Assembly: GCA_944390185.1 (NCBI GenBank)
Contig: CALXPA010000001.1
Coordinates: 1-57,912, forward strand
Length of the DNA stretch: 57,912 nt
DNA from: an uncultured Alphaproteobacteria bacterium
Lineage (GTDB): Bacteria > Pseudomonadota > Alphaproteobacteria > Rs-D84
Direction of reading: 5' to 3'
Made by a program: the position numbers and the translations under genes. Shown here piece after piece: positions 44,819 through 48,744 of this stretch; the first letter of the stretch is position 1, and the number at the start of each line of letters is the position of its first letter. The notes beneath the pieces were generated by a model. The model was not told where the DNA came from, searched no databases, and saw only the letters and a list, made by a program, of their open reading frames with translations.

Positions 44819-44847
44819 TTGCAATATTTTTTTTCAGTTGCTAGACT
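44819..44847 (+). promoter_or_regulatory. Candidate promoter of the prepilin-like operon
   Basis: TTGCAA, 17-nt spacer, TAGACT. Confidence 0.4.
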
Positions 44848-44880
44848 GCAAAATATATACAGGGGGGGACCAGGGATAAT

Positions 44881-46236
44881 ATGCGTCAACACAGCGGAAA
44901 TTTTTTACTGCAGGCATTGCTGGCGCTGACGCTGATATTTTCTTTTATTCCGTTTTTTGCCGAACGCTTGGCGGCGCGTGACATGGATGCCCAAATGTAC
45001 GCATCGTCGCAAAAGGTTGATGTCGCCCAGACTGCTGCGCGAATTTTCATTCGCGAACGCGCAAACGATTTGCCATATAATACAACGGTTGTTTCTGGGG
45101 ACGCGTTTTCAGATTTGTTGGAACCATATGGGCTGCCGCTGGGGTTTATGCCGCGTACCGCCATGGGCCAGAACATATCACTGGTCATAGAAAAAACAGC
45201 CACCGCCGTCAGTGGATATCTGGAATTGTCTGGGGGGAATATGTCCGGGGTCCAGTTGGCAGAATTGGCGCGGCGCATCGGATTTTATGCATCTGTATCG
45301 GGGGACCGTATTTTGGTTGGCATACCACTGGACGTTGCGTATTCTGATGTTGTGCGCCGCAATGAAACGGACCTGGATAACAGTGCTTTTTTAACAGACT
45401 TGGATATGGGCGGATTCAGATTTAATAACGGGGGCCAGGTTTTTGCACGCCGTGGAACCTTTGATTCTGGCCAGTTTAATACGCTGTCTATATTCGGCAC
45501 CGAAGATGGGCGCAAGGTACGTAATTCAATTGATGTTATGATTACATCGCGTGCTGTGTTTCAAAGTGCGCTGGGGGAATCTGCATTGTCGTTGACGCGC
45601 GGTACGTTGTATGTTGGGTCAATTAACGCGCGAACGGTGTCGCAATTTGGGGACACTGGGTCTTTTACGTCGAACAGTGCATCTGTATATGACTTTGCGA
45701 TGACGGCGGGGCGCACCAGTTTTTCTGGGCCACTGGAATGGAATGTCGGCGGTGATTTGTTGACCGAGAATATAAATTTCAGTGTGGAACGTTTGGAAAT
45801 AGATTCCTATATCGATGCGTCACGTGGCCAAGATGTATATATTGACCCGGATGAATTGTCGTACAGCACACGCAGTGGTATCGAAACAGATTCTATTGTT
45901 GCATCAAACATAACGATGCGCGACCAAACATCTGATGCGTTAAACAGTGGTGAAACTGGTGCGGTCATATTGGATATTCGTCCGGCTGGGACATCTGTGT
46001 TGCCGGATTTATTGCTGGATACGATTGACAATGCTGCGTTTGATATTTTGTCTGACCCCAGTGACAGTGCCGCCAAGACAATTGATTGTCGCACAATAAT
46101 AACAGACCTGGGTGGGCGTTATAACCAGCGGTCTTTATCGCAATACATTATCTGCCAATATGTTTTTTGGCAGCGTTTGGAAAAAAGAATAGATGTAAAA
46201 CAATGCTTGTTGGATGGGCGCAGTGGTTGTATGTAA
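44881..46236 (+). CDS. Large prepilin-like protein 1 (451 aa, Gln at +5)
   Basis: N-terminus MRQHSG|NFLLQALLALTLIFSFIPF with Pro-Phe at +18/+19. Internal LTDLDMGGFRFNNGG motif. Confidence 0.6.
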   Translation: MRQHSGNFLLQALLALTLIFSFIPFFAERLAARDMDAQMYASSQKVDVAQTAARIFIRERANDLPYNTTVVSGDAFSDLLEPYGLPLGFMPRTAMGQNISLVIEKTATAVSGYLELSGGNMSGVQLAELARRIGFYASVSGDRILVGIPLDVAYSDVVRRNETDLDNSAFLTDLDMGGFRFNNGGQVFARRGTFDSGQFNTLSIFGTEDGRKVRNSIDVMITSRAVFQSALGESALSLTRGTLYVGSINARTVSQFGDTGSFTSNSASVYDFAMTAGRTSFSGPLEWNVGGDLLTENINFSVERLEIDSYIDASRGQDVYIDPDELSYSTRSGIETDSIVASNITMRDQTSDALNSGETGAVILDIRPAGTSVLPDLLLDTIDNAAFDILSDPSDSAAKTIDCRTIITDLGGRYNQRSLSQYIICQYVFWQRLEKRIDVKQCLLDGRSGCM

Positions 46237-46258
46237 AACGAAAATCTTTATCGATGAA

Positions 46259-47428
46259 ATGCGCGGGGCCAGTTTGACCGAAGTTTTACTGGCGATGGCG
46301 ATTGTGGCCATGGCGGCGCCGTTCTTGTACAGTCAGATTGTTAACAACAATGATACATTGCGTGATATTGCGGCGGCGGATGACATAATTGCCGTGCGTG
46401 ATCCTGTGTTAAATTTTATTCGCCTGAACCAGTCCCAGTGGCCAGATGTTGCGCAAATCAGATTATCTGATGAAGAGCTGGATGGAATATCTGATGTGCC
46501 GACATTTGGATTTATTGACAAGTACACTGTGCGCGGTGCAACGGTGACAGATGTGTATCTGGCGTTTGATATGGATGCCACTGACCTGCGTGTCAATCAA
46601 ATTGCGCGACACATTGGTTCAGACGCCGCGGTGGTGGGCAGTGACGGCGTCGCATATGGTGGCACATGGGCGGTTGCAGCACCTGAATTTAAGCCGGGCG
46701 ACCTGATATATCGTATCAGTCGGGATTTAACAGGCGAAGATAAAACAAAATATTTACATCGCACTGAAACAGGTGAAGAAAACCTGAACACAATGTTACG
46801 CGATTTGAATATGAATAACAATCGTGTATACGATGTTGGTGGCATCGTTGGAAAATCTGCGGAAATCAGAAATGCCACTGCCCAGTTTGTTGAAATGCCG
46901 AACCTGGGGGCGGACACGGTTTATTTTTCATCTGGGGCAAATTTAGACGGGGACCAGGCGGCATTTGGTACCATTCGCGTATCTGGGGATATATCTGGGT
47001 TTCGAAATATTTATGCAAATACTATGAACGGCCATGCATATACGACCAATGGCCAGATTATCACAGATCGCGCCACGGTTTTAAATTCAGTAAATGTTGC
47101 GAATAATCTGGTGTTGAAAACAGACACTGCGCGCACAATCAGTGCGTTTACCGGCGTCACAGCGCACACGGCATTTACGTCATACTTGAATACCGAAGAG
47201 ATAATTTTTTACGACAACTTTGGATTGACGGTATCGGGCGAATTGCTGATGTCGACGACGTCGCCGATAAAGATTGGATCGTGGACGTTTCCGTCACTAA
47301 CGCCACCGCGATTTGCGTGGCTGCACCTGGCGCGGGCCACGGTTCCGGCGGCCCCTGATGCGGCAGAATTCAGTGTATTAATGTCCGATGGATGGCAAGA
47401 TGCACAACCTGTGGGGGTATTGCAATGA
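46259..47428 (+). CDS. Large prepilin-like protein 2 (389 aa)
   Basis: N-terminus MRG|ASLTEVLLAMAIVAMAAPF with E+5 and PF at +18/+19. Internal KYLHRTETGEENLNTMLRDLNMNNNRVYDVGGI. Confidence 0.65.
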   Translation: MRGASLTEVLLAMAIVAMAAPFLYSQIVNNNDTLRDIAAADDIIAVRDPVLNFIRLNQSQWPDVAQIRLSDEELDGISDVPTFGFIDKYTVRGATVTDVYLAFDMDATDLRVNQIARHIGSDAAVVGSDGVAYGGTWAVAAPEFKPGDLIYRISRDLTGEDKTKYLHRTETGEENLNTMLRDLNMNNNRVYDVGGIVGKSAEIRNATAQFVEMPNLGADTVYFSSGANLDGDQAAFGTIRVSGDISGFRNIYANTMNGHAYTTNGQIITDRATVLNSVNVANNLVLKTDTARTISAFTGVTAHTAFTSYLNTEEIIFYDNFGLTVSGELLMSTTSPIKIGSWTFPSLTPPRFAWLHLARATVPAAPDAAEFSVLMSDGWQDAQPVGVLQ

Positions 47429-48744
47429 TACGGATGCCCAGATTTTTCCGCGGTCAACCAAACGCCCAGCGTGGCAGCATGTTGGTTGAATTGCTGATGA
47501 GTGTTGCGCTGGCGGCGATTATTATGCCGTTTATATTCCGTTATCAGCAAAGCGCAATTCAACGCGCTGAAAATATCGCGGTTGCCGATAATATGTCAGA
47601 AATACGCAGTGCGCTGGAACGATACATTATGGATAATCGTGAACAGTTGATGAACACTGTTGGGCGAAATATTGTTCGTGTTAATATTGCAGATTTGGTG
47701 GACTATGGTGTGTCAATTGACTTGGCAGCGCATGCCAACGAATACCAATTGCGCGTACTAAAATCCAGTGATCGTGATGGGCGCGCCACGTTACAGGGCG
47801 TTGTGGTATTTTCGTCGGATGAAATCAGTCCCCTGCGCACGCGTGAGATTGTGTCGCTGGGCGGTGGCGATATGGGATTTATTGATGGTAATCGTGCGTA
47901 CGGGACGTTTGGGGCGTGGCGTGCGAATACGGTGGATATGGGGGTGGACGTTTCCGGGGGCATTGTTGAAATGACAGACATTAACCAGGACACGTCGTTA
48001 TACCTGTGGCGTGTACCGTCTGACACGGCATCGGATGCGATGATGTTGTCTGGATTAAATCTGGGGGGGCACGACATAACGAACGCGTCGTTTTTCAATG
48101 CATCATCGGTCCAGTTTGACGAGACACTGACCCTGGGGGTTGGTGTTGCATCAAATGTGATATTCCAAAACAGGACAACCCTGGACAATTTGTTCGAGGC
48201 CACAAATGCCACCGTTGCAGGTACATTGTCGTCTGATTCCCGCACGATGGAGGTTGCTGGGGATTTCACCCTGGGTGGTACGGGCAAGTTCACCAATTTC
48301 ACGACTGGGGATTTATGGGCGACGAACATGACGTTGGGGGGATTGTCTGTATCATCTGATCTGGACGGCCCAGTTATATTACAGGTAAATCGTTCGATTG
48401 ATATGACGGGTGGTCGAATAACTGCGCTGTATGTGACAGTTGGGTTCGCAGGATCGATTACACCGCGCCTGGTCGTCAGGGACAGAATCGAAGATTCGAT
48501 AAACCCTGATTATTACTGGGACGCATCAGAACGCGTTGCGAATCTGATGGATGTTTCGTTACAAGAACTGAACGCCATGGCGATGGATATCGCGTATTCA
48601 GAAAATGCGTCCAACACAGAATCAGGGCGCATCTTTGGCGCGGTGGTCGCGAACAAGAACGCCACGGCATCAGACTATATGAACGCAATCAGTGAAATAC
48701 AAAATGCGGTCCGTGCAAAATATCGCCGGTTGAATTTAGAATAA
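47425..48744 (+). CDS. Large prepilin-like protein 3 (439 aa)
   Basis: N-terminus ...NAQRG|SMLVELLMSVALAAIIMPF with E+5 and PF at +18/+19. Internal LYLWRVPSDTASDAMMLSGLNLGGHDITN. ATGA overlap with the upstream gene. Confidence 0.65.
   Translation: MIRMPRFFRGQPNAQRGSMLVELLMSVALAAIIMPFIFRYQQSAIQRAENIAVADNMSEIRSALERYIMDNREQLMNTVGRNIVRVNIADLVDYGVSIDLAAHANEYQLRVLKSSDRDGRATLQGVVVFSSDEISPLRTREIVSLGGGDMGFIDGNRAYGTFGAWRANTVDMGVDVSGGIVEMTDINQDTSLYLWRVPSDTASDAMMLSGLNLGGHDITNASFFNASSVQFDETLTLGVGVASNVIFQNRTTLDNLFEATNATVAGTLSSDSRTMEVAGDFTLGGTGKFTNFTTGDLWATNMTLGGLSVSSDLDGPVILQVNRSIDMTGGRITALYVTVGFAGSITPRLVVRDRIEDSINPDYYWDASERVANLMDVSLQELNAMAMDIAYSENASNTESGRIFGAVVANKNATASDYMNAISEIQNAVRAKYRRLNLE

Follow-up and report, generated by a model that had tools for sequence, protein, structure and literature searches.

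Three tandem genes in the core chromosome of an uncultured alphaproteobacterium of the Rs-D84 lineage encode what we hold, at a probability of roughly 65%, to be diverged members of the PilV (Shufflon_N) family, acting as minor pilins and adhesins of an R64/IncI-type type IVb thin pilus. The genes are located in the 57,912 nucleotides (nt) of contig CALXPA010000001.1 that were analysed here (the window), and their products are termed proteins A, B and C. By sequence, the trio falls within the PilV superfamily, below the curated thresholds, and its host lineage, 'Candidatus Enterousia', most likely builds a type IVb pilus with three fixed adhesins. This is not a new class of filament; it is a known kind in a new arrangement and a new host, being triplicated, free of a shufflon, part of the core genome, and recurrent as trios elsewhere. 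An original prediction, made from the sequence of the window, had proposed giant minor-pilin or tip-adhesin-like subunits of a non-canonical type IV filament. The homology of all three proteins to PilV bears out its first part, but "non-canonical" was overstated, because the family together with PilO, PilP, a PilQ-type ATPase and a PilR-type platform represents the described R64-type type IVb system. Accordingly, the expectation that the trio would belong to no described family held only in part: it joins the PilV superfamily, but has neither a shufflon nor the operon position nor the plasmid setting of PilV. The three genes are as follows:

44881..46236, + strand: protein A, 451 residues; PilV-like prepilin with leader MRQHSG, Gln at mature position 5 (+5) and four invariant C-terminal Cys
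46214..47428, + strand: protein B, 404 residues; PilV-like prepilin with a leader of about 18 residues and Glu+5
47425..48744, + strand: protein C, 439 residues; PilV-like prepilin with a 17-residue leader and Glu+5

The coordinates and prepilin-type N-termini of these tandem open reading frames are as first quoted, with two amendments: the start given at 44819 lies 62 nt 5' of the first ATG of A, and protein B, which measures 389 residues from the ATG at 46259, reaches 404 residues from the upstream ATG at 46214. The latter is the true start, with its leader of about 18 residues, since the orthologue alignment supports it, and from there B overlaps A by 23 nt. The overlap of B and C by ATGA stands as first read. 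The trio sits between dnaX and rluD, and past C the gene string runs on without gaps through a gene for a zinc-ribbon/transmembrane protein and one for a secreted protein of 169 residues into rluD (49768-50751). Genes of envelope biogenesis surround it, with lpxD, fabZ, skp and an ompA-like gene adjoining and lptD and lptF/G about 20 kb upstream. The guanine-plus-cytosine (GC) content reveals no island at the trio; between 42000 and 50000 only chance-level repeats and none resembling the sfx repeats of a shufflon were detected, and no integrase or rci-like recombinase came up among those open reading frames of the window that were scanned with Pfam.

All three proteins begin with a class III (prepilin) signal, a short basic leader ending in Gly that is followed by about 20 hydrophobic residues. 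Numbered from the residue after this Gly, Pro-Phe occupies +18/+19 in A, B and C, and at +5 A has Gln where B and C have Glu. These features, all recognized in the original prediction, are not only legible in the three proteins but also conserved in their families: Gly-1 is invariant among the orthologues of A and C and nearly so among those of B, Glu+5 is invariant in the B and C families, and Gln+5 is invariant in the A family, whose alignment invariants are G6, Q11, P24 and C403/C425/C442/C450. Furthermore, only nine columns reach >=90% conservation in an alignment of 74 sequences with a mean column identity of 15%, and they include G-1, E+5 and the Pro; the motif (K/R)G-xxxxE (the hyphen marking the cleavage site) opens every distant relative, from 400 to 1236 residues in length. 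Since G-1, E+5 and Pro are kept in relatives less than 20% identical, the N-terminal features must be selected rather than due to chance. Some capping minor pilins, such as GspK, lack Glu5.

Homology to PilV extends well beyond this N-terminal signal. A search of 1.84 billion representative proteins with the C-family profile recovered 289 relatives at E<=0.001, including six (P0466, P0467, P0482, P0486, P0487 and P0492; E=1.6e-10 to 1.7e-8) that carry the Shufflon_N domain PF04917 at E=1e-7 to 4e-74. P0492 matches 2,835 plasmids, shares 58% identity with a protein annotated as [quoted passage not shown], and belongs to an R64-type pil operon with genes for a secretin, PilO, PilP, an ATPase, a platform, a PilS pilin, a lytic transglycosylase, an A24 peptidase and PilV, 3' of which an integrase and then Dot/Icm-type transfer genes follow. 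P0467 is encoded on a short contig downstream of a PilS pilin and a T2SSE-family ATPase. In profile-profile comparison by hhalign, an alignment of five PilV proteins matched C at 99.4% (E=2.4e-21, 228 aligned columns), B at 97.2% (E=3.8e-11, 267 aligned columns) and A at 94.5% (E=8e-8, 192 aligned columns). A PilV profile used with hmmsearch scored 83.7 bits for C, 35.5 bits for B and 14.3 bits for A, and tblastn of one PilV hit the C gene in 45 related loci. The signature common to PilV and the trio reads, in A, B and C, Y/V-L/V-x-R ... N/D-x-M/F-L ... L-D/N-L/M-G/N-G/N-x-x-I/V/F-x-N/D:

PilV: DRLYR..V.GRPDLN.MHTAIDMG.NNINNAG
C: LYLWRVPSDTASDAMMLSGLNLGGHDITNAS
B: KYLHRTETGEENLNTMLRDLNMNNNRVYDVG
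A: DVVRRNETDLDNSAFLTDLDMGGFRFNNGG

The three proteins had been called paralogous, a description that plainly fits B and C (BLASTP E=2e-6; hhalign 97%); A is related at the profile level only (hhalign 58% with B and 12% with C, besides its 94.5% with PilV). Profile searches of the PDB returned pilin N-termini for C and no match for A or B, and ten distant relatives, including forms of about 1,000 residues, contained no Pfam domain except for one sub-threshold terminal match.

Several other identities were considered and rejected. Matches to GspH/I/J/K were confined to residues 1-40 at E=0.02-0.2, far below cutoffs; a Tad origin, for which TadE (PF07811) had been proposed as a check, yielded no match at E<=1 in A, B or C; and for a Com origin nothing matched past the N-terminal helix. 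Pfam and NCBIfam scans of the trio gave sub-threshold N-terminal matches only (N_methyl, GspI, GspK).

Each trio protein has about 800-1,100 homologues from gut metagenomes; among those listed, the few named are all "hypothetical", and none has a Pfam domain. In GTDB species-representative genomes, 137 matches to relatives were found, and the 80 loci retained from these all belong to 'Candidatus Enterousia' or uncultured gut (Alpha)proteobacteria. Orthologues are full length at 43-84% identity, with synteny kept down to 43%, and the trio and a small pilin encoded nearby diverge faster than DnaX (56% vs 79% identity at locus L061) and remain full length. The order A-B-C recurs in the housekeeping neighbourhoods of distant low-GC lineages (L087, 7220-11470; L084, 3039-7249), where gene 2 has its best match to the B profile and gene 3 to the C profile. 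Among distant relatives, the A profile matches gene 1 of L087 best, though weakly (E=0.0044); gene 1 of L084 has no match to that profile and carries Gln+5. A third locus, L085 (3551-14143), encodes three tandem PilV-like relatives of 1,236, 1,083 and 1,188 residues. All three loci derive from uncultured lineages with a GC content of 30-46%. The A-B-C gene order is thus ancient.

About 2 kb upstream of the trio lies a prepilin gene that had been overlooked in the original prediction:

42334..42795, - strand: type IV pilin of 153 residues, candidate major subunit; leader MKQERG followed by ASMIE..., two invariant Cys

This pilin is kept in 74 related loci with the same six-residue leader, G-1 and E+5. 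Its Pfam matches are weak (N_methyl, E=0.006; PilS, E=0.012, below cutoff), and its best PDB matches are pilin N-termini.

Genes for an assembly machinery were sought by Pfam scans of the window, by motif regular expressions over 1.7-2.7 Mb of loci and by tblastn with two reference pil operons of the IncI / R64 type (L091, L173). As originally stated, the window contains none: Pfam scans of 39 of its open reading frames, including the trio and its neighbours, revealed no ATPase, platform, secretin or peptidase. What it encodes are genes for housekeeping functions and the envelope, together with a coupling protein of the VirD4 type; extension past its two ends added nothing further. Machinery is found in other Enterousia loci. 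At L061, from another Enterousia species, PilO (PAP_PilO, E=8e-8, 32 bits), a PilP-like gene and a T2SSE ATPase are situated on the trio contig beside skp. This ATPase has 191 metagenome relatives on contigs of up to 935 kb, and the best 80 of the 191 are 79-91% identical. A cluster in the R64 order O-P-Q-R is present at L116, with a PilO above the cutoff of PAP_PilO (PF06864; 48.3 bits vs 26.7, E=8.8e-13), a PilP above that of TIGR03021 (46.2 bits vs 34.65), an ATPase of 545 residues (T2SSE, 5e-61) that is 29% identical to IncI PilQ (E=4e-45), and a platform of 357 residues (T2SSF, 4e-25) that is 27% identical to PilR. With the reference operons, tblastn identified PilQ homologues in 80/80 and PilR homologues in 69/80 ATPase loci; beyond these, it gave only a marginal PilP match (E=0.013), and no homologues of PilL, PilM, PilT, PilN or PilU were detected in the fetched loci.

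Protein C, the only one modelled, yielded an AlphaFold2 model with a predicted local distance difference test (pLDDT) of 80.5 from a deep alignment, rising to about 90 for the N-terminal domain (with a shallow alignment the value was 39.7 and the model could not be used). The predicted fold comprises an alpha-1 helix at 17-70 (54 residues), an alpha/beta head with strands at 107-115, 121-129, 150-160 and 178-183 (pLDDT about 90), six regular strands within 223-327 and three C-terminal helices within 380-435. A length of about 54 residues is typical of pilin alpha-1 helices, and the six predicted strands are consistent with a beta-solenoid stalk. The C-terminal halves had been said to hold beta-helix-like repeats rich in Asn, Gly, Thr and Ser: their enrichment proved modest, these four residues making up 32-35% of the C-terminal vs 23-28% of the N-terminal halves of the trio, and the periodicity, of about 18 residues, weak. 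Foldseek with the C model returned only weak left-handed beta-helix, bactofilin and tail-fibre matches. Beta-helix-like is therefore a plausible description with moderate support, which the regular strands of the C model favour. Beyond the pilin part, the C-terminal portions of the three proteins are mutually unrelated, with four invariant Cys in A, a Pro-rich tail in B and a predicted helical bundle in C.

The closest known counterparts are the PilV proteins of IncI1 and IncI2 plasmids (R64, TP114), which share with the trio their size (about 430-470 residues), the prepilin leader with Gly-1 and Glu+5, and a homologous N-terminal part of about 230-270 residues including the motif LYR...LN.M...DMGGN.I.N. 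PilV of R64/IncI thin pili is both minor pilin and adhesin, its C-terminal variants binding the lipopolysaccharide (LPS) of recipient cells (PMC9045228). As in PilV, where it carries the binding specificity, the C-terminal part of the trio proteins is variable (PMC9045228), and PilO/PilP/PilQ/PilR-type machinery is likewise present in the Enterousia lineage. However, the trio consists of three fixed genes, whereas IncI plasmids vary one pilV by shufflon inversion, and it lacks rci and the sfx repeats. Further, PilV terminates the pilL-pilV operon next to pilS, pilT and pilU on an I-type conjugative element, the host being an enterobacterial plasmid; in contrast, the trio lies beside dnaX and rluD in a genome-reduced alphaproteobacterium. 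The C-terminal modules are also unrelated, and the trio has Pro+18 and no Phe+1.

Chromosomal or ICE-borne use of an R64-type system is not itself new. A type IVb example is the pil operon of SPI-7 in Salmonella Typhi, and another is the PilS2/PilV2 system of PAPI-1 in P. aeruginosa. In both cases a compact operon with just one pilV remains on a mobile island; the genes described here, by contrast, are scattered among housekeeping genes, with pilV triplicated. PAPI-1 PilV2 also recognises recipient LPS (PMC5297154). Three tandem pilin-like subunits are furthermore reminiscent of GspI-GspJ-GspK of the type II secretion system (T2SS), A lacking Glu5 as GspK does, and of CofB and TcpB; however, neither sequence nor Foldseek similarity to any of these was found. 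CofB and TcpB are large minor pilins that form trimers. CofB has been placed at the pilus tip (PMC9045228). Likewise, Streptococcus sanguinis PilB and PilC fuse a pilin module to a functional one, a von Willebrand factor A domain and a lectin, respectively (PMC8179133, PMC9934059), but those modules are unrelated to the ones found here and belong to a type IVa-like system of a monoderm host.

Based on these likenesses, we propose that a prepilin peptidase would cut A, B and C after the Gly, and that the 153-residue pilin would be polymerised by PilO, PilP, an ATPase of the PilQ type and a platform of the PilR type, all encoded elsewhere in Enterousia genomes. Proteins A, B and C would enter this filament as minor subunits at or near its tip, from where their C-terminal modules might bind surface structures of other cells or of the host, as modelled on PilV. 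Since A lacks Glu5, as capping minor pilins such as GspK do, it may be the outermost member of a single tip complex made up of all three.

Further features in the immediate surroundings of the trio are:

44771..44800, + strand: sigma-70-like promoter match 5' of A (TTACCA, 18-nt spacer, CATAAT); 9/12 matches in a consensus scan only, which is not evidence of function
48753..49280, + strand: zinc-ribbon/one-transmembrane-segment/C-terminal-domain protein of 175 residues, starting 8 nt after C
49277..49786, + strand: secreted protein of 169 residues with a signal-peptide-like N-terminus and no family match, overlapping both neighbours

The gene for the 175-residue protein is syntenic in L001 and L089, and that for the 169-residue protein in L001, L089 and L174. 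The former protein scores just below cutoff for Zn_ribbon_4 and MJ0042_CXXC and finds weak zinc-ribbon matches only in the PDB. In architecture it resembles Caulobacter ZitP, which we treat as no more than a resemblance. ZitP is a polar factor that has been linked to the biogenesis of pili (PMC5182063).

Additional observations were made in and around the window. A VirD4/TraG-type coupling protein (34588-36810, - strand; T4SS-DNA_transf, 3.5e-51) is encoded 8 kb upstream of the trio by an isolated gene with housekeeping genes around it, and at L116 a VirB4-like gene (257-2671) is located about 5 kb upstream of the pilOPQR cluster; these VirD4- and VirB4-like genes raise the question of whether a thin-pilus-like system cooperates with a type IV secretion system, as in IncI plasmids. 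Near the same cluster, a serine-recombinase-like open reading frame with the N-terminus MVYAYLRVSTDAQD occupies 3696-4298 (- strand) of L116. Directly 3' of rluD, two Cys-rich proteins with signal peptides and no family match, of 1071 residues (50847-54062, + strand) and 941 residues (54224-57049, + strand), are candidate surface proteins: the first is syntenic and fast-evolving (45-53% identity where DnaX has 67-89%), and none of the six related loci checked contains an equivalent of the second. At the contig end (57058-57912), direct repeats of 121, 55 and 45 nt recur at spacings of 125-390 nt, and their units hold GC-rich palindromes (GTCATCCCGG...CCGGGAT) with the look of repetitive extragenic palindromes or miniature inverted-repeat transposable elements; this array probably caused the assembly break. 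Elsewhere, a fourth tRNA-like Rfam match (18482-18564, + strand; 37.5 bits) was not called by ARAGORN, and proteins of 490 residues (19586-21058, + strand) and 367 residues (33446-34549, + strand) have no Pfam or NCBIfam match.

Several results weigh against a PilV-type pilus of Enterousia. The proposed check for Shufflon_N returned no PF04917 match at E<=1 for A, B or C, the homology emerging in profile-profile comparison instead, and the NCBIfam scan of the three found no PilV match; because the trio fails these Pfam and NCBIfam thresholds, the assignment holds at the superfamily level only. The likeness of the 153-residue pilin to PilS, though suggestive, is insignificant (hhalign 9.5%). 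Regarding the C model, Foldseek found no pilin or adhesin among PDB and BFVD entries, and its domain arrangement is uncertain since the predicted template modelling score reaches only 0.45. Neither a prepilin peptidase nor a secretin was detected in the window, 85 trio loci or 80 ATPase loci, nor was an A24 peptidase in the window or about 2.7 Mb of related loci, and the evidence for pilOPQR stems from other Enterousia loci, not from the window's own genome. Moreover, a 2025 survey reported type IV pilus genes for another lineage and left them unmentioned for Rs-D84 (PMC12306168), and the tip location, the ligand and the heterotrimer are purely inferred.

The failure to detect a secretin close to either gene cluster could instead speak for a periplasmic pseudopilus akin to T2SS or Com-like secretion or uptake, with the trio as the tip of a short piston or uptake fibre by which material would cross the envelope. 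The weak N-terminal resemblance to GspI, GspK and GspH would agree with it, as would the ATPase, which scores best against the GspE model, below cutoff, and the absence of standard sugar, amino-acid and peptide transporters from Enterousia (PMC12306168). We nevertheless consider a pseudopilus improbable: the accessory genes are an R64-type PilO (PF06864) and PilP (TIGR03021) rather than GspC, L or M, the large subunits are homologous to the adhesin PilV, and an exposed tip suits proteins of 400-450 residues that bear solenoid stalks better than a piston would. Somewhat less probable again are pilin-derived, uncleaved signal anchors, that is, bitopic inner-membrane/periplasmic proteins that have ceased to assemble into a filament. 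They would suit the failure to locate a prepilin peptidase, the envelope-biogenesis genes around the trio and the Gln in place of Glu at +5 of A, but unless the proteins are cleaved and packed into a filament, it is difficult to see why G-1 and E+5 persist in relatives below 20% identity; 74 loci maintain a bona fide small pilin alongside, and genomes of less than 1 Mb keep a dedicated set of ATPase, platform, PilO and PilP at 79-91% identity.

Finally, PilV-family genes usually travel with conjugation genes, and given the VirD4-type coupling protein 8 kb upstream, the trio might be regarded as the decaying remnant of an integrated IncI-like conjugative element devoid of present function. This seems very improbable in view of intact, full-length orthologues in fixed housekeeping synteny among the 137 GTDB species-representative matches, the absence of an integrase, sfx-like repeats and a GC island, and the tight packing of genes that overlap each other in a string running into rluD. 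A type IVb pilus with PilV-like minor subunits thus remains our preferred reading. A bolder extension of it, which we put forward tentatively and hold to be rather less likely than not in its entirety, is that an IncI/R64-like thin pilus was domesticated into the core genome of this partner-dependent lineage as its attachment organelle, with the fixed PilV trio forming a heteromeric tip fibre capped by A, and with the trio module (of proteins of up to 1,236 residues) widespread in several uncultured diderm lineages as an adhesin system that has escaped recognition until now.

Enterousia (order Rs-D84) has genomes of 0.75-1.0 Mb and lacks respiration as well as standard transporters, and a partner-dependent way of life has been suggested for it (PMC12306168). 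With a genome of less than 1 Mb and a presumed dependence on partners, a pilus is plausible as an attachment organelle; PilV-like adhesin genes spanning about 4 kb, a pilin and a highly conserved pilOPQR cluster, all maintained in so small a genome, represent a concrete candidate for the attachment apparatus. Our findings thereby address how a common uncultured gut lineage might make contact with its partners. They also give a family name to roughly 1,000 "hypothetical" proteins per paralogue and extend the PilV/Shufflon_N superfamily well past plasmids. Under the bolder extension, three giant PilV paralogues, ancient and fixed, would have taken the place of adhesin switching by a shufflon. 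If our interpretation is true, the trio would represent a second route to adhesin diversity in this type of pilus, based on fixed paralogues and not on DNA inversion.

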